Positions 2,475-31,245 of a stretch of DNA of 32,000 nt are shown here, in pieces. The DNA comes from Candidatus Pacearchaeota archaeon (lineage in GTDB: Archaea; Nanobdellota; Nanobdellia; Pacearchaeales; GW2011-AR1). Position 1 is the first letter of the stretch, and every line of letters begins with the position of its first letter. The stretch covers positions 73,034 through 105,033 of the forward strand of contig JAWCQE010000002.1 in NCBI GenBank assembly GCA_038869895.1. Direction: 5' to 3'. The notes beneath the pieces were generated by a model that had not been told where the DNA came from, did not search any database, and saw only the letters and a program-made list of their open reading frames with translations. Both the position numbers and the translations under genes were made by a program.

Positions 2475-3209
2475 ATGGCATTAGAATTAAATGCAACACG
2501 AGAACCATACAGAGAATTTTACGGCAAAAATGTATGGCAGATGCCGGAGTTAATAGCTGACGGCAGAGTTCCTATGTCTGTTGCTGGATTAATGCAAAGA
2601 CGACTTGATGTTAGAAATTCTGATGCTGATGTTAAAAGTTCTTACATGGACAATTATTTTGACACAGGAGATGCAGTTTTATATCACCCAGACGGCAGAG
2701 TAAAAATAGTTCTTGATTCTCAAACTTTGAGAGAAATGACACCAGATACTCAAAGAGTTGGTGGAGCATTACTTTTGGGCGAAGATGTTTATGATGCTTT
2801 GCAAGGTGAAGAATTCAAGAAAGGAAAACTTGGAAAAGTAGATGAACGACTTACAAAAGAACAAGCTAAGGCTCATCCAGTTTGGAAAGTTTTAGCAAGA
2901 GACCAAGCATTACTTGATGATTATGCTGATTGTATTTTTGCAGAAGGCAAACAAAGATTTAATGATGATAATGCGATGGGTGTATTCCTAGATTCTGCTG
3001 GAGATAAGCCTAAATTGAGGGCTTGGTGTGTCTGCAGGCTTGGGCTCAGGTCTGACGCCTCTGGCGGGGACAGCCTCGTCAGTGATCATGGTCGTTTCGT
3101 CGGTATAGCGCCGGAGGCACTAAGATTTGATAGCGCATTAAAAGGTTTGGAAGCAACAGTTCGACCTGAATTGCTAGAGCCATTTAGAGAATTTAGAAAG
3201 AAACTTTAA
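2475..3209 (+). CDS. Hypothetical protein with a DGR-type variable C-terminus (candidate DGR target protein)
   Basis: 244-aa ORF, visibly GC-richer than its neighbours. Its 3' end (RAWCVCRLGLRSDASGGDSLVSDHGRFVGI) is repeated downstream in an A-rich form. Confidence 0.7.
   Translation: MALELNATREPYREFYGKNVWQMPELIADGRVPMSVAGLMQRRLDVRNSDADVKSSYMDNYFDTGDAVLYHPDGRVKIVLDSQTLREMTPDTQRVGGALLLGEDVYDALQGEEFKKGKLGKVDERLTKEQAKAHPVWKVLARDQALLDDYADCIFAEGKQRFNDDNAMGVFLDSAGDKPKLRAWCVCRLGLRSDASGGDSLVSDHGRFVGIAPEALRFDSALKGLEATVRPELLEPFREFRKKL
3019..3109 (+). repeat. DGR-like variable repeat (VR) inside 2475..3209
   Basis: Ungapped 91-nt hand alignment to 3393..3483 gives 69 identities. Of the 22 mismatches, 14 lie where the other copy has A. 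This copy has 10 A and the other has 22. Confidence 0.6.
3108..3120 (+). other. Imperfect hairpin GCGCC-GGA-GGCAC immediately 3' of the VR
   Basis: Stem with one mismatch. Nearly the same 14-mer (AGYGCCGRAGGCAC) follows the VR-like region of the 13615..14820 gene but in a different reading frame. It is absent after the 3393..3483 copy. Confidence 0.45.
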
Positions 3210-3392
3210 TTCTGAAAACGTTTTTATACTTAAATTATTATTAATATTAGTCCTGGCAGCCGAAAGGAAACTTTTGAGAAGCTGGGTTATATGCACTTCC
3301 ATGACGGCAACTTTGTTGTCATAAAATACAGCCATAACACCAAATGTTGTGAAATGGCGGTGATAAGTTTAGAGTGGAAGGGCTATGCTTTC

Positions 3393-3483
3393 GGGCTTGG
3401 TATGTCAACAGGCTTGAGAACAGGTCTATCGTTGTTGGCAGGTACGACCTCGACAATGACAATGGTCGTTTCGTCGGAATAAC
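3393..3483 (+). repeat. A-rich second copy of the 3019..3109 repeat; candidate DGR template repeat (TR) or degenerate second VR
   Basis: Only short overlapping ORFs cover it. In the VR frame it reads AWYVNRLENRSIVVGRYDLDNDNGRFVGI with AAC/AAT codons. It shares an A-free 15-nt 3' block, TGGTCGTTTCGTCGG, with the VR and lacks the downstream hairpin. Confidence 0.5.
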
Positions 3484-3657
3484 TCACTTCCCGATAACAG
3501 GACATTTTTTCTTTTTAAAATTTCTTTTGGATTTGATACTTGCCATTACACAATCATAACTGAAAGATTTATACAGTCAGATTTTCTAAACATTCCATGG
3601 CACTTGAATAAAAAGAAATTTTGATGAAACCAATAAAAAAAGTTAAGAAATCTTAGT

Positions 3658-4005
3658 ATGTACTTCCCAGACCAAGATGAGACAGTTTATTATTTTGGTA
3701 AGTTTCTAGCAGAAAGATTAAATCCAGTATTAAGTCCAGATGAATTTTATACGGCAGCAGAATTAGCTTTATGTGACCTTCTGAGAGGTGTTAACGGATT
3801 TACTAATCAACAAATCAAAAGTAAATTAGTTGGTTATCCACTAATAATTTATGGTTTATTAAGAATGATGATTCCAGACATTGCATGTGAAGTTTGTCCT
3901 CGAGACTTTGCTCAAGATGTAAAAGAGAGGCATGAGGCAGTTAATGCACAAATAAGGAAAAATATAATGGCAAAATGCAAAATAAACGAACAACTAACTT
4001 TATAA
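3658..4005 (+). CDS. Hypothetical protein
   Basis: 115-aa ORF with no recognisable motif. Lies between the DGR-like region and tRNA-Val. Confidence 0.4.
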   Translation: MYFPDQDETVYYFGKFLAERLNPVLSPDEFYTAAELALCDLLRGVNGFTNQQIKSKLVGYPLIIYGLLRMMIPDIACEVCPRDFAQDVKERHEAVNAQIRKNIMAKCKINEQLTL

Positions 4006-12186: not shown

Positions 12187-13461
12187 ATGAAAGAATTAAA
12201 AGGGACTTTTTTAAGGGGATTGACATCTATATTATTATCTTTGCCTCCTTTGGCAACCAATGGTTGTGCATATCATTCTGTTTTTAGGAATAATGAAATG
12301 TCGAATGGAGCTCAATTACTTGAAGATACTAAATTAAATTATGAAAATTATGATGCAATGAGGGAGTATGTTATCGTTAATAATAGGGCTTATCCTAGGG
12401 GAGAAAGTCCTGTAGAATTTGATGAGGAGATAATACAGGTTTCACCTTTACCAGTAAAGAGGTTAAGAGAAATTAACGCCACTTACATAGAATCTCCTGA
12501 TGGAAATATAATAATGAACTATGCTTGTAGAATACCTCCTTCAGACCTTCAAGACTTGATTAAAGATTATCTGCCAGATGGAATCAAAGTTGAAGAATTT
12601 CCCACTAAAAACATGCTCATATTCAGTGGAAAAAAAGAGTCTTTTAATGAAAATAATTTAGGACATCTTTCTAATTTAATAAATCAATTTGACATTCCGC
12701 CAGAACAAATTCGTATCCGTTTAAGAATAGTAGAATATTTTGCGGATAATACCTATGACAGAGACTTATCATTAAATGTTTTGAAGGATTTGATGCCAGT
12801 AATTACATCTTCTCTCCCCAGTAGTTTAGATACAAATAAAAATCCCAATATAGGGACTGCTATACATCCTTTTAATCTTATTACTCTAAATACAAAAAGA
12901 CTTACTTTTGAGGGAGCAATAAAATTTTTAGATAGTTATGGAAAAACAAATACTCTTGCAGACTTGGATTTATTAACTTCAAATGGAAGACCTACTGAAT
13001 TGAAAAATCAAAGTTCAATTCCATATCCAGAAACGCAGATAGTTGGAAATAGTGTATTAGAAACTTTAAGATATAGAGATATTGGGTTGGACGCAAAATT
13101 AATTCCCTTTGCTAATGAGGAGGGATTTATTACAATAAAAGTTGAAAAAGCAGAGTCAGGAGAGCAAACAGGTTTTTCTGGAACAATTCAGAGGCCGATT
13201 TTTAGACTTGCGGATTTAATTACAGAAATAAATGTAATGAATGGATTAACTTATTTTGTAGCGTCTTCGAATTTTACAAGATATAAATCAGTAAATAGAG
13301 GAATCCCTGGAGTTAATAAAGTCCCAGTAATAGGAGATGTTACAACTTCTAGTTCAATTGAAAATATTCAGTCACAGCTTTTATATTTTATAGAAGCACG
13401 TGTAATGGATAGGAGGGATAGAATAACAGGAATTGTGCCATCAATTAGAAATAATCCTTAA
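12187..13461 (+). CDS. Secretin-family protein (GspD/PilQ/pIV-like), putative lipoprotein
   Basis: N-terminal signal ending LATNGC. C-terminal half shows the secretin-domain pattern: LLTSNGRPTELKNQSSIPYP, YRDIGLDAKLIPFANEEGFITIKVE, RPIFRLADLITEINVMNGLTYFVAS, IPGVNKVPVIGDV...QLLYFIEARV. Confidence 0.65.
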   Translation: MKELKGTFLRGLTSILLSLPPLATNGCAYHSVFRNNEMSNGAQLLEDTKLNYENYDAMREYVIVNNRAYPRGESPVEFDEEIIQVSPLPVKRLREINATYIESPDGNIIMNYACRIPPSDLQDLIKDYLPDGIKVEEFPTKNMLIFSGKKESFNENNLGHLSNLINQFDIPPEQIRIRLRIVEYFADNTYDRDLSLNVLKDLMPVITSSLPSSLDTNKNPNIGTAIHPFNLITLNTKRLTFEGAIKFLDSYGKTNTLADLDLLTSNGRPTELKNQSSIPYPETQIVGNSVLETLRYRDIGLDAKLIPFANEEGFITIKVEKAESGEQTGFSGTIQRPIFRLADLITEINVMNGLTYFVASSNFTRYKSVNRGIPGVNKVPVIGDVTTSSSIENIQSQLLYFIEARVMDRRDRITGIVPSIRNNP

Positions 13462-13614
13462 ATTACTTTTATTATTTTTAACATATCTCTTCTTGGTCTT
13501 ACCTTTCCTTGCTTTTCTTCAAGCAATTAACAATTTACCCATATTGTATGTTTTCTCATATAGATTTTTGTAGGTTTTCATTATAATCCTGACCATAGAC
13601 TACCATTAAGAACT

Positions 13615-14820
13615 TTAAAAATTTTCGCGCGTGCCTTCGGCACTAACGACTACTACCTGACCGTGCTCGTACGAATTACGCAAGCAGTCGTAATGCGAAT
13701 TCAAGTTTCGGTTACTATTGAGAAAAGCCCTCGCAAGGCCAAATTGCATAGTACATAATGTTCTATTTCCTCCACTACCTAAAATAGGTAATCCATTCTC
13801 ATCTCCCCTACTAAATCTTTGTTCATGATTACTTTTTACTAATTGTGGAGCATGATATATTTTTCCATCTTCTCTTAAATTAAATGCTAAACCATAATCA
13901 GAACTTTTACTTGCATCAGAACTAGGATTATCTAATTCAAGACTTGTTAGTGGGACCATAACAGGATATTCAATTTTTCCATCTCTTGCCTTAATTTGTT
14001 TAGCTAAATGTTGTGCTAGTTTAGCATTAACTTCACATTGAGTTCTTAAAATTAAGGCTCCATCGTTATAAGTAGAACTTAAATCTAATGTTCCTTGTTC
14101 TAAAATTCTCTCTAAATCTGCCAAGGTTGCTGTTCTAAATCCCCCACTACTTATAATTTGATTAACTAAAACAACCGCAAAAGAATTTGAACCTCTTACA
14201 ACACCATCATAAAAGGATAAAACATTCAAAGTTCCTATTCCGTTATATTCTGATTTAACTCTTTCTTGATATTCCTCTAAAACTTCTTTACCAAATTCTC
14301 CTCTTAAAAGATTAACTTTATGTTTTTGTCCGTTAATATCTAAATCTCTACCTTCAAATTTTGGGATTTCAAATTCTGGTCTAAGTAATCCGAGCCCTGT
14401 AACCTTGTATAATGCTTTTCTTTGCTCTCTTGGAACTTGCGATAATTCCACAATCTTACCAGTTAAGTAAGATTTAGCATCTGATTCTGGAATTCCCAAC
14501 ATTTCTGCTGCTGTGGTTAAATCTTTTTTATTCAGTCTTCTTGCCCTTAATTGTTCTTCTGAAATCTGGTCAACCAATCCTAAATCACTCATACGATAAT
14601 GTTTACCTTCCATTCTATCATCAAATTTTACAGACGCAGATGGTTCACCATCAATAGAATGATCTCCAAAATTACCGATAACTACTCCTTCACCATAATT
14701 CTGGTCTGCAAATCTACTATCTCTTCTAATTTTGATTCTCGCTCCTCTCCCCAATTCCTGTTCAGATAATCTTTTCAGAAGCCATTCTTTCAATTGTTCA
14801 TTCCATGTTTTTTCGGTCAT
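13615..14820 (-). CDS. Hypothetical protein with a DGR-VR-like C-terminus (second candidate DGR target)
   Basis: 401 aa. GC-richer than the flanks, and last gene of a tightly packed three-gene unit. The C-terminus RAFLNSNRNLNSHYDCLRNSYEHGQVVVV parallels the RAW...HGRFVGI end of the 2475 gene. Confidence 0.65.
   Translation of the reverse strand: MTEKTWNEQLKEWLLKRLSEQELGRGARIKIRRDSRFADQNYGEGVVIGNFGDHSIDGEPSASVKFDDRMEGKHYRMSDLGLVDQISEEQLRARRLNKKDLTTAAEMLGIPESDAKSYLTGKIVELSQVPREQRKALYKVTGLGLLRPEFEIPKFEGRDLDINGQKHKVNLLRGEFGKEVLEEYQERVKSEYNGIGTLNVLSFYDGVVRGSNSFAVVLVNQIISSGGFRTATLADLERILEQGTLDLSSTYNDGALILRTQCEVNAKLAQHLAKQIKARDGKIEYPVMVPLTSLELDNPSSDASKSSDYGLAFNLREDGKIYHAPQLVKSNHEQRFSRGDENGLPILGSGGNRTLCTMQFGLARAFLNSNRNLNSHYDCLRNSYEHGQVVVVSAEGTRENF
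13631..13643 (-). other. Perfect hairpin GTGCC-GAA-GGCAC 3' of the VR-like segment
   Basis: 5-bp GC-rich stem with a 3-nt loop inside the last codons of the gene. Homologous at nucleotide level to 3108..3120. Confidence 0.45.
13644..13731 (-). repeat. VR-like segment rich in AAY-derived codons
   Basis: Coding-strand codons are aat agt aac cga aac ttg aat tcg cat tac gac tgc ttg cgt aat tcg tac gag cac. Twelve of the 19 are NNY codons reachable from AAC/AAT by changes at A. No cognate copy was found in the window. Confidence 0.4.
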
Positions 14821-23641: not shown

Positions 23642-24082
23642 TTATTGAACTATAAAAGGCTTACTTAACAAATCACATATTTTATTACCTATTTTTGCGG
23701 CCGTTTCTACTCTACTCCCTGGACTAAGAAGACCAGAATTAAGTGTTACGTTTCTAGTTTCTCCTACCTTTATTGGTGTTTCACTTCCACTTTGAGAATA
23801 ATCAATTCCTCCGACAATGGTCCCATCTACATAAACAACAATTCCACTCAATTCATCGCTTCCAGAATCTCTGCGTATAAATACAGAAGAGGTTGTACTA
23901 TTAACAGATACCACTCTTAATTGAGTCTCTAAACATCCAGTAGAACTTCCAATATTTGAAAGATTGTTGCTGACAAAATTCTGAATAACAACCCAAACAA
24001 TTACAACAGCAGCAATTGCAAGAAGAATTAAAAGGACAGTAGTTACAACATCTGACACCGCTTTTTTATTGTTTAACTTCAT
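23642..24082 (-). CDS. Archaeal type IV pilin-like protein (class III signal peptide), paralogue A
   Basis: MKLNNKKAVSDVVTTVLLILLAIAAVVIVWVV matches the archaeal pilin/archaellin N-terminal domain. Two Cys in the C-terminal globular part. Confidence 0.75.
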   Translation of the reverse strand: MKLNNKKAVSDVVTTVLLILLAIAAVVIVWVVIQNFVSNNLSNIGSSTGCLETQLRVVSVNSTTSSVFIRRDSGSDELSGIVVYVDGTIVGGIDYSQSGSETPIKVGETRNVTLNSGLLSPGSRVETAAKIGNKICDLLSKPFIVQ

Positions 24083-24084
24083 TA
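23970..24084 (-). repeat. 115-bp perfect repeat, copy 1 (pilin 5' end plus 2 nt of leader)
   Basis: Identical base for base to 24568..24682 (offset 598). Identity ends abruptly at the codon after ...QNFV. Confidence 0.9.
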
Positions 24085-24245
24085 CATAATAATATAATCA
24101 ATCTTTTTAAATGTTTTTAATGTCAAACTTTTTTAATATTTTACGAAGTATACTTAGAATATAAAATCTATTTAAATAACCTTTAAATAAAAAGAATAGA
24201 TTTTATCATCTTTCATTTTAAAGGAAATACTCCTTTTGAAAAATT

Positions 24246-24680
24246 TTAAGATACTGCAACTGATTGGGCTTCTTGTATTCTACAACTTGTACCGTCACTT
24301 AATTCAAATGCGACATATACATCAACAAATTGGCCAGATTGTAAGGTGATAGGTGGTTGCATTTGTCCAGTAGTTGTGGATTCCGCAATTTTTATATTTG
24401 GATTTTGTACTGTTGCAGAAGATGTTCCTATTGAAGCTCTAATGACACCTATATCAACATTTCCAGAAGTTCTTCTTAAGGTTACATTTCCATTTGTTGT
24501 AACAGAAGTAACATCATACCTTGTTGATAAGCAGTCTGCAGAACCTGTGACTTCTTTTGAACCTTCTCTGACAAAATTCTGAATAACAACCCAAACAATT
24601 ACAACAGCAGCAATTGCAAGAAGAATTAAAAGGACAGTAGTTACAACATCTGACACCGCTTTTTTATTGTTTAACTTCAT
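24246..24680 (-). CDS. Archaeal type IV pilin-like protein (class III signal peptide), paralogue B
   Basis: The first 37 aa are identical to paralogue A. The C-terminal part is divergent but keeps the two-Cys layout. Confidence 0.75.
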   Translation of the reverse strand: MKLNNKKAVSDVVTTVLLILLAIAAVVIVWVVIQNFVREGSKEVTGSADCLSTRYDVTSVTTNGNVTLRRTSGNVDIGVIRASIGTSSATVQNPNIKIAESTTTGQMQPPITLQSGQFVDVYVAFELSDGTSCRIQEAQSVAVS

Positions 24681-24682
24681 TA
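24568..24682 (-). repeat. 115-bp perfect repeat, copy 2
   Basis: See 23970..24084. Confidence 0.9.
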
Positions 24683-24887
24683 TACCATTAATAAAATTAA
24701 CTTTATAAAGCTTTTGTTAAATTGTGTTGTTGTGTTAAATGCTAGTGTTTAACTAAAAATTAATTTGCCATTCAAAGCTTCATGCTTATCTACAAAATTA
24801 TAAAAATTTGTATTCCTTTGAATATAATATAATTCCCTTCAACAGAACCACGTAATTCTTTAAAATTTTAATTCTTCAAATTCATAT

Positions 24888-30986: not shown

Positions 30987-31127
30987 AACTGAAAACCACC
31001 TGCGGGTTTTCTATCCTGCAACCAATCGAATCCGATATGAGCCTGCTCGGATTCGAACTGAAAACCACCTGCGGGTTTTCTATCCTGCAACCAATCGAAT
31101 CCGATATGAGCCTGCTCGGATTCGAAC
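30987..31127. repeat. 69-bp direct tandem repeat (2 copies plus 3 nt) duplicating the 3' 21 nt of tRNA-Ile and its 48-nt trailer
   Basis: 30987-31055 equals 31056-31124. The tRNA 3' segment TGAGCCTGCTCGGATTCGAAC occurs at 31038-31058 and 31107-31127. Confidence 0.9.
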
Positions 31128-31181
31128 CGAGGACCCCTACCTTATCAGAGTAGTGCTCTAACCTGGCTGAGCTACAGGCTC
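31107..31181 (-). tRNA. tRNA-Ile (anticodon GAU)
   Basis: Reverse complement GAGCCTG...CTACT-CTGATAA-GGTAG...CTCGG-TTCGAAT-CCGAG-CAGGCTC-A. Perfect 7-bp acceptor stem. Confidence 0.9.
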
Positions 31182-31245
31182 ACATTAACTTTAGAAAAAA
31201 ACAATTTATAAGGGTTTTTATTTTAAGAATTATTAAGATGATTAT

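Follow-up and report, generated by a model that had tools for sequence, protein, structure and literature searches.

A short stem-loop shared by two unrelated genes of a Pacearchaeota archaeon as a probable target-site element of diversity-generating retroelements

We describe here a short G+C-rich inverted repeat lying just past the variable regions of two unrelated genes in a stretch of 32,000 nt from a Candidatus Pacearchaeota archaeon (GenBank assembly GCA_038869895.1, contig JAWCQE010000002.1, positions 73,034 to 105,033 of the forward strand). This whole stretch is called the window below, and features are given in its coordinates; its gene content (ribosomal proteins S19e and L31e, Rpb6, Kae1, thermosome) is that of a low-G+C DPANN archaeon. 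Both genes, whose products match proteins of a Candidatus Pacearchaeota archaeon metagenome-assembled genome at 100% identity, belong to families of variable proteins of diversity-generating retroelements (DGRs), and the inverted repeat most likely represents a DGR target-site stem-loop of the short trinucleotide-loop type of DPANN archaea, a reading to which we assign a probability of roughly 0.85 on the strength of sequence comparison. The window itself holds the remnants of two separate degenerate DGR cassettes and no intact DGR.

Two Cassettes and a Shared 3' Element

The first cassette contains a target gene with its variable region (VR), a template repeat (TR) and a trace of a reverse transcriptase (RT):

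2475–3209, plus strand: target gene 1 (244 aa, no Pfam hit), of a Pacearchaeota/Nanoarchaeota DGR variable-protein family with 409 homologues
3019–3107, plus strand: VR1, an 89-nt repeat with 76% identity to 3393–3481
3107–3121, plus strand: putative target-site hairpin, apparently degenerate, AGCGCC-GGA-GGCACT (arms 3107–3112 and 3116–3121, loop 3113–3115)
3252–3391, plus strand: RT-16 RNA (Rfam RF03019) leader, 72.7 bits against a gathering threshold of 50, ending 1 nt before the TR
3393–3481, plus strand: TR1, eroded, non-coding and followed by no hairpin
3482–3510, plus strand: conserved TR 3' flank ACTCAC...ACAGGACATTTT, occupying the place that the hairpin has in VR1
3438–3539, minus strand: remnant of a convergent DGR RT (last ~34 codons), overlapping the TR end and flank; the rest is gone

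The second cassette lies on the opposite strand:

13615–14820, minus strand: target gene 2 (401 aa, no Pfam hit), of a second, unrelated DGR variable-protein family
13653–13739, minus strand: VR2, identified through homology with VR/TR pairs in relatives
13631–13643, minus strand: putative target-site hairpin GTGCC-GAA-GGCAC (arms 13643–13639 and 13635–13631, loop 13638–13636)
13582–13610, minus strand: remnant of a post-TR spacer (CTTAATGGTAGTCTATGGTCAGGA...), joined straight to the end of gene 2
13405–13581, minus strand: RT N-terminal pseudogene of 59 codons, truncated and with two in-frame stops

The C-terminus of target 1 follows the family pattern RAWxVxxLxxRSxAxGxxxLDxxxGRFVGIAPEA, where x is a hypervariable residue, and that of target 2 the hypervariable pattern GLSxLxLxxxLxLxSxxxxLxxSxxxGRVVVVSAEGT. 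In the DNA of the window, the 14-mer AGYGCCGRAGGCAC is matched exactly twice, at 3107–3120 (plus) and 13631–13644 (minus), and the copies lie at the 3' ends of these two unrelated genes. The count stays at two when two mismatches are tolerated; 0.05 matches were expected, and two or more were reached in 0 of 100 shuffles. The end of VR1 at 3087–3120 (plus) reads CATGGTC-GTTTCGTCGGTAT-AGCGCCGGAGGCAC, and the coding strand of the open reading frame (ORF) at 13615–14820 (minus) reads CACGGTC-AGGTAGTAGTCGTT-AGTGCCGAAGGCAC from 13665 to 13631, just as an initial annotation, made from the letters of the window alone, had quoted them. The same annotation counted CAYGGTC as shared. Its GGTC part stands, being the conserved Gly-Arg codons that close the VR; the CAY part belongs to a hypervariable codon, which is AAT in the TRs, and the match there is thus a coincidence.

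The two copies are read in different frames, as had been proposed: A|GCG|CCG|GAG|GCA|C in VR1, giving I-A-P-E-A, and, one phase away, AGT|GCC|GAA|GGC|AC in gene 2, giving S-A-E-G-T. The difference of 1 nt lies in the spacer from GGTC to the motif (13 nt in one copy, 14 nt in the other). The pairing that had been described is also there, perfect in GTGCC-GAA-GGCAC of gene 2 and with one mismatch, C3109·A3119, in GCGCC-GGA-GGCAC of VR1. The expectation that VR1 would fold accordingly did not hold. Under DNA parameters, which possibly do not cover the special stability of mini-hairpins, the minimum free energy fold of the gene-2 copy includes the hairpin at −6.1 kcal/mol (z −1.1 to −1.6), while the −2.1 kcal/mol of the VR1 copy comes from a different pairing and the hairpin is not predicted (z +0.3 to +0.9). 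A generic hairpin search (stem of 5 bp or more with four or more G:C pairs, R-N-A triloop) found two cases in the window, the gene-2 hairpin and one within a tRNA-Ser, against a block-shuffle mean of 0.15.

The Element in Related Loci

Our comparison set comprised 120 related loci: 40 genomic loci for family 1, fetched from more than 400 homologues of target gene 1, and 80 metagenomic loci for family 2, with 25 database homologues of target gene 2.

The DNA that follows the VR in family 1 has the consensus ATA GCG CCR GAG GCG CT, which contains the perfect palindrome AGCGCC-RGA-GGCGCT and folds at −7.6 kcal/mol (z −2.7). A perfect hairpin of 5–7 bp with a GCGCC/GGCGC core and an RGA loop (GGA in 21, AGA in 15) is present in 36 of 39 copies. 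The window copy is among the three exceptions, A3119 being a G-to-A change that creates the C3109·A3119 mismatch and removes the hairpin from the predicted fold. As far as these sequences tell, then, the VR1 copy is a broken form of the perfect family palindrome, a feature that the initial annotation had not included.

Codon use within the hairpin was compared with the rest of the same genes in 39 family-1 members. At the hairpin, GCG encodes 76 of 78 alanines, GAG 37 of 37 glutamates and CCG or CCA 38 of 38 prolines; elsewhere, GCG makes up 7% of alanine codons and GAG 16% of glutamate codons, with a G+C content at third codon positions of 0.19. Such frozen synonymous sites indicate that the conserved peptide is a by-product of a constraint on nucleotides. 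In family 1, ATA| closes the VR/TR homology, with GCGCC immediately behind it; 4 nt separate the last mutable adenine from the stem. Across 14 correctly aligned VR/TR pairs, we counted 9–17 mismatches at TR adenines and 0–2 elsewhere (two pairs of locus L033 were printed out of register and gave no count). All 16 related-locus VRs aligned to a TR have a perfect hairpin, and family 1 shows no fixed difference between VR and TR ends other than the hairpin itself. A DGR-type RT ORF (GxxxSQ...YVDD) occurs in 14 of the 40 loci; intact copies are of about 470–540 aa, and most are convergent, ending within or beside the TR.

Two side observations concern this family. L029 (5791–5805), L032 (6625–6645), L034 (6628–6642) and L031 (1671–1685) carry second, family-1-like VRs that end in GRFVGV-STEGA and have the stem AGCACC/GGTGCT; in this paralogue, the hairpin stands in the family-2 phase inside a family-1-like VR. 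Loci L001, L008–L010, L017, L019, L020 and L039 have a third arm, GGCGC-TAAGT-GCGCC (...EALSAPG), just 3' of the hairpin, which could pair alternatively with the 3' arm of the hairpin and is not conserved across family 1.

Many family-2 loci combine a TR, typically 200–450 nt downstream and in most pairs showing 0–3 non-adenine mismatches, with an RT of about 400 aa in the same orientation. Their VRs end in GGTCGGGTAG or GGCAGGGTGG, as opposed to GGTCGAATAG or GGCAGAATGG in the TRs, a difference that is invariant even at a synonymous site. The stem follows about 8 nt past the end of VR/TR homology and takes many forms (AGTGCC/GGCACT, AGTGGC/GCCACT, GCGCC/GGCGC, GATGCC/GGCATC, ACCAGC/GCTGGT, GCGAC/GTCGC, CTGGC/GCCAG), with loops of GAA (21), GGA (2), AAA (3) and others (9). 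Among family-2 VRs with a detected TR, 15 of 16 have a perfect hairpin, and the sixteenth contains a G:T pair. Covariation was scored on an alignment of 45 sequences in which hairpin-less members were kept and most were placed at a fixed offset. Paired cells amounted to 75.9%, against 60.5% in shuffles and 21–40% in slid controls; changes occurred on both sides at 6/6 pairs, with 37 double-change cells against 14.2 (0/500 shuffles), and the covariation score was 0.355 against 0.152 (0/500 shuffles). The peptides encoded at the hairpin (SAEGT, SGEAT, SDAVA, DAEGI, TSEAG) shift as base pairing requires.

In relatives of both families, the hairpin starts 0–10 nt past the point where VR/TR homology stops, and none was found next to a TR at any TR flank of the relatives (16 family-1 and 16 family-2 VRs aligned to their TRs). 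Such a distribution speaks for the DGR target-recognition element that the initial annotation had seen in the hairpin. The consensus hairpins reach −6.3 to −7.6 kcal/mol (z −2.6 to −3.2). From the 109 generic hairpins in 839 kb of related loci, 61 were flagged automatically at VR ends, and about 23 more were recognised by eye after VR ends (GGTCGGGT, GGCAGGGTG or CGTTTCGTTGG) that the regular expression had missed. No homology between the two target families was detectable (hhalign probability 0.5%; BLASTP E > 0.1). Taken together, the unrelated families, the different phases, the frozen synonymous sites and the stem covariation bear out the earlier view that conservation resides in the DNA or RNA and not in the protein; neither frequent occurrence of the motif at random positions nor a conserved peptide behind it was found.

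The RTs of relatives carry GNLTSQ...YVDD. Sequence searches of the PDB with target 1 or with profiles of either family returned nothing relevant, and AvpA was not matched by the family-1 profile. An AlphaFold2 model of target 1 had a mean predicted local distance difference test score of 42, too poor for fold comparison. The likeness of target 1 to AvpA amounts to a motif resemblance, RFVGI at residues 207–211 and the published RFxGV at 205–209.

One further observation concerns RT-16 (RF03019). No more than about 5 nt separate its end from the start of the TR in the window, in 14/14 family-1 loci and in 12/13 family-2 loci with a TR; its scores in the relatives are 54–109 bits. Weinberg et al. 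(2017) tied only RT-10, located 3' of the TR of phage BPP-1, to a DGR. In DPANN DGRs, RT-16 appears to form the structured leader at the 5' side of the TR RNA, opposite to where the BPP-1 spacer lies.

State of the Two Cassettes

VR1 and TR1 differ by 21 mismatches, 13 at TR adenines and 8 at other positions, compared with 0–2 non-adenine mismatches in active relatives; the non-adenine differences are scattered across the 3' two-thirds of the repeat. Hairpin 1 begins at the last base of VR/TR homology (3107). The initial annotation was inclined to regard the 3393–3483 copy as a template rather than a target, and we agree: it is non-coding, is preceded by the RT-16 RNA, has A where VR1 varies and lacks a hairpin. 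Its flank (3482–3510) contains no inverted repeat, and the flank motif ACYCAC...ACAGGAC also occurs after the TRs of related loci. TR1 lacks four adenines (TR positions 37, 42, 43 and 51) that are invariant in 12 related TRs. The RT remnant was matched, weakly, by tblastn with residues 459–492 of the L010 RT (E 8e-4). In 24 of 25 aligned relatives, APEAL is followed by 19 aa (SAPGKGASNIKAYTMADLQ), which target gene 1 lacks.

Four of the five lineage-specific changes of TR1 fall at A sites, with A accounting for about 27% of TR positions (binomial p roughly 0.02). Such adenine loss may fit a template that was hit by mutagenised cDNA or converted by a VR, or it is perhaps due to chance. The ORF at 3658–4005 was considered as an Avd-like accessory gene and rejected, being conserved in 0 of the 120 related loci.

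VR2 closes with GGTCAGGTAG (13662–13653), which is IMH-like (IMH: initiation of mutagenic homing) and is one change away from the family-2 consensus; a repeat search and blastn of VR2 against the window revealed no second copy (TR) there. The gene-2 hairpin has 5 bp, and most relatives have 6–7 bp. The RT stub, MKTYKNLYEKTYNMGKLLIA*RKARKGKTKKRYV..., begins 34 nt past the stop codon of gene 2; about 20 DGR RTs match it at their N-termini with 41–59% identity and E values as low as 1e-7. In the alignment with locus L041, which holds the nearest relative of target gene 2 (62–64% identity), the same spacer stands after the TR (...GAATAG|CTTAAGGTAGTCTATGGCTAGGA). Since gene 2 is joined to this post-TR spacer, a deletion took an intervening ORF, RT-16 and TR. 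The RT ORF of L041 has only 67 codons (L041 2120–2323), past which RT homology breaks off. The perfect hairpins of gene 2 and L041 differ by a compensatory pair, GTGCC/GGCAC vs. GCGCC/GGCGC.

Pfam scans of 30 ORFs and a scan for GxxxSQ/YxDD motifs found no intact RT in the window, and tblastn with about 29 RTs of relatives found no RT homology in it beyond the two stubs. Nor is there an RT in the 6 kb upstream of the window, as covered by an overlapping contig (GCA_038868955.1, JAWCSC010000007.1); a further look-up in that direction, made with the window's first ORF, yielded nothing. In that contig, VR1 is identical, and there are 2 single-nucleotide polymorphisms over the 7.15 kb that overlap.

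Both deletions in the window begin no more than about 5–15 nt 3' of a hairpin (3121–3130; 13610–13630), target 2 being joined about 12 nt past its hairpin. The extruded hairpin may be a fragile site, or the placement of the deletions may be coincidental. Converging on the RT stub of the second cassette and overlapping its end is a 424-aa ORF (12187–13461, plus) with a bacterial-type Secretin domain (PF00263, E 4.7e-16).

Elsewhere in the window, an exact tandem duplication with a unit of 69 nt (30987–31124) overlaps the 3' end of a tRNA-Ile (31106–31182, minus) and could be an integration-site scar. A 148-nt direct repeat with 91% identity (23970–24117 and 24568–24715) lies at the 5' ends of adjacent paralogous ORFs, one of which weakly matches the N-terminus of archaeal type IV pilins.

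Interpretation of the Element and Rival Explanations

We propose the following scenario. The element, a G+C-rich inverted repeat of 5–7 bp with a purine-rich R-N-A loop on the sense strand, is placed within the target gene right 3' of the VR. An RNA composed of the RT-16 leader, the TR and a short spacer would be copied by the DGR RT into adenine-mutagenised cDNA. The stem-loop, extruded from the target DNA as a hairpin or cruciform, would mark the VR as the recipient and would raise the efficiency of VR replacement by the cDNA, probably by holding the target open. As the element lies in coding sequence, it entails a fixed peptide, IAPEA in one phase and SAEGT or SGEAT in another.

Several points weigh against this scenario. 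The folds obtained from the window alone are not significant (z +0.9 and −1.1), so that the argument rests on the relatives. About 20 of 52 family-2 VR-like ends have no hairpin, and the element is hence not universal there; many of these hairpin-less contigs are short and possibly carry non-diversified paralogues. In the covariation alignment, some family-2 sequences were positioned on their best hairpin, and this inflates the pairing. Action at the level of DNA and a role in retrohoming are what we infer by analogy with a single system, that of BPP-1. Finally, perfect hairpins persist in many family-1 genes that have neither a TR nor an RT within 6 kb, and these, together with the compensatory pair between gene 2 and L041, where only RT stubs are left, hint at continued selection.

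As for the state of the two copies, we lean towards regarding both as fossils of past diversification, given the lack of an intact RT, the RT stubs, the deletion of a TR, the erosion of TR1 and the broken VR1 hairpin. It is possible, though we hold it to be a good deal less probable, that both hairpin genes are still live remote targets, diversified in trans by an RT and TR RNA encoded elsewhere in the genome. Nanoarchaeota are known to have RT-less cassettes of target, VR and cis-elements, for which diversification from a distance has been proposed (Paul et al. 2015); the perfect hairpins of family-1 genes far from any TR or RT, the intact RT-16 of the window and the gene-2 hairpin, perfect and compensated relative to its nearest relative, would all suit such remote service. 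On the other hand, the eight non-adenine differences between VR1 and TR1 occupy the 3' two-thirds of the repeat, the part that any homing would overwrite; the VR1 hairpin is broken and has no predicted fold; the window contains no TR matching VR2; and VR1 is identical in two near-identical assemblies. A bolder extension, in which stem-loops would be under selection in RT-less cassettes and DPANN archaea would maintain networks of orphan targets that a single RT serves in trans and for which the hairpin is the only address label, strikes us as rather improbable.

The remaining explanations concern the nature of the element itself. A stem-loop acting in mRNA, as a signal for stability or processing or as a translational pause near the end of the variable domain, would agree with the transcription of the element within an ORF, and covariation alone cannot separate pairing in RNA from pairing in DNA. 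We nevertheless consider such a role improbable: the hairpins lie within ORFs and are followed by no T-run, they stand beside VRs only and never beside the transcribed TR, and the homologous element of BPP-1 forms in supercoiled DNA and acts on retrohoming. Moreover, among single mismatches in otherwise intact stems, G:T wobbles were, by our own count, no commoner (3) than non-wobbles (5), a lack of bias that lends no support to a role in RNA only. Still harder to accept is an origin of the shared 14-mer in peptide conservation or in shared descent of the two proteins, with the frame difference as a local compensated frameshift. It is true that the peptide is conserved within each family (IAPEA; SAEGT) and that both VRs end in Gly-Arg followed by hydrophobic residues; yet profile–profile comparison gave no similarity, the synonymous sites are fixed for codons seldom used elsewhere, and the family-2 peptides SGEAT, SDAVA, DAEGI and TSEAG change exactly as base pairing demands. 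Least probable of all, to the point of being negligible, is a chance likeness of two G+C-rich 14-mers. The pattern was indeed defined after both copies had been seen, but the expectation of 0.05 holds even with two mismatches, and the element recurs at the equivalent position in about 80 independent related loci.

If the target-site reading of the stem-loop is right, it has some practical use. A G+C-rich stem of 5–7 bp with an R-N-A triloop, encoding an IAPEA- or SAEGT-like peptide, would flag DGR-diversified genes of DPANN archaea even without a nearby TR or RT; in the 839 kb of related loci, about three-quarters of such hairpins are at VR ends. Family 1, in which no IMH spacer intervenes and the hairpin is the sole difference between target and template, would offer a clean system for the role of the stem-loop. 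Neither cassette of the window should be annotated as an active DGR.

Comparison with Known Systems

Archaeal counterparts of the element have been published. Paul et al. (2015, Nat Commun 6:6585) described GRA-triloop hairpins inside the target genes of DGRs from DUSEL4 Nanoarchaeota, together with an IMH of TGGGGT vs. an IMH* of TGGAAT and with the partial cassettes lacking an RT that were mentioned above. The similarities include an inverted repeat that is short, has a constrained G-R-A loop and lies inside the target ORF just past the VR, the VR IMH of GGGT as against the TR IMH* of GAAT (in our family 2, GGTCGGGTAG as against GGTCGAATAG), and the presence of several cassettes per genome, some of them RT-less, with orphan target proteins. 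Unlike in DUSEL4, the loop of family 1 is RGA, its AGA form falling outside the published GRA; the family-1 stem directly adjoins the final TR-homologous base, no IMH spacer intervening; and the RT stubs seen here reveal decay directly. The likeness is one of features, and neither of our families was matched by sequence to a published group.

In phage BPP-1, supercoiled DNA allows a hairpin or cruciform to form from an inverted repeat located immediately 3' of the VR; pairing of the stem is needed while its sequence is free, the sequence of the GRNA loop matters, and the stem-loop and IMH suffice to target a foreign gene (Guo 2011, PLoS Genet 7:e1002414). Handa et al. (2016) reported a hairpin within a coding extension after the AvpA VR, and a reconstitution study of 2026 found the DGR stem-loop important and not essential, with a model in which it "keeps the target open". 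Like its BPP-1 counterpart, our element is a target-only inverted repeat 3' of the VR, with a G+C-rich stem of variable sequence and a purine-rich loop on the sense strand, and its distance from the VR is variable in both settings (4–34 bp in phages, 0–10 nt here). The differences are that stems here have 5–7 bp rather than 7–10 bp and loops 3 nt (R-N-A) rather than 4 nt (GRNA); that the element lies within the ORF rather than past the stop codon; that family 1 is without the 35-bp IMH between the mutable region and the stem; and that the structured RNA sits on the 5' side of the TR here (RT-16) and on the 3' side in BPP-1 (the spacer, RT-10).

A further resemblance, biophysical and not one of family, is to DNA mini-hairpins. 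Turns of the C-GNA-G or C-GAAA-G kind are unusually stable in single-stranded DNA and would favour extrusion of one strand; Hirao and colleagues reportedly described extraordinarily stable mini-hairpins of this sort, d(GCGAAGC) and d(GCGAAAGC). The family-2 turn is C-GAA-G, that of family 1 is C-GGA-G or C-AGA-G, and the loop of BPP-1 is GAAA.

Overall, the core of our finding repeats that of Paul et al. (2015), and we regard it as a rediscovery that confirms and quantifies their observation. What is added here are the frozen synonymous codons, the covariation of the stem, the RGA loop and the absence of an IMH spacer in family 1.

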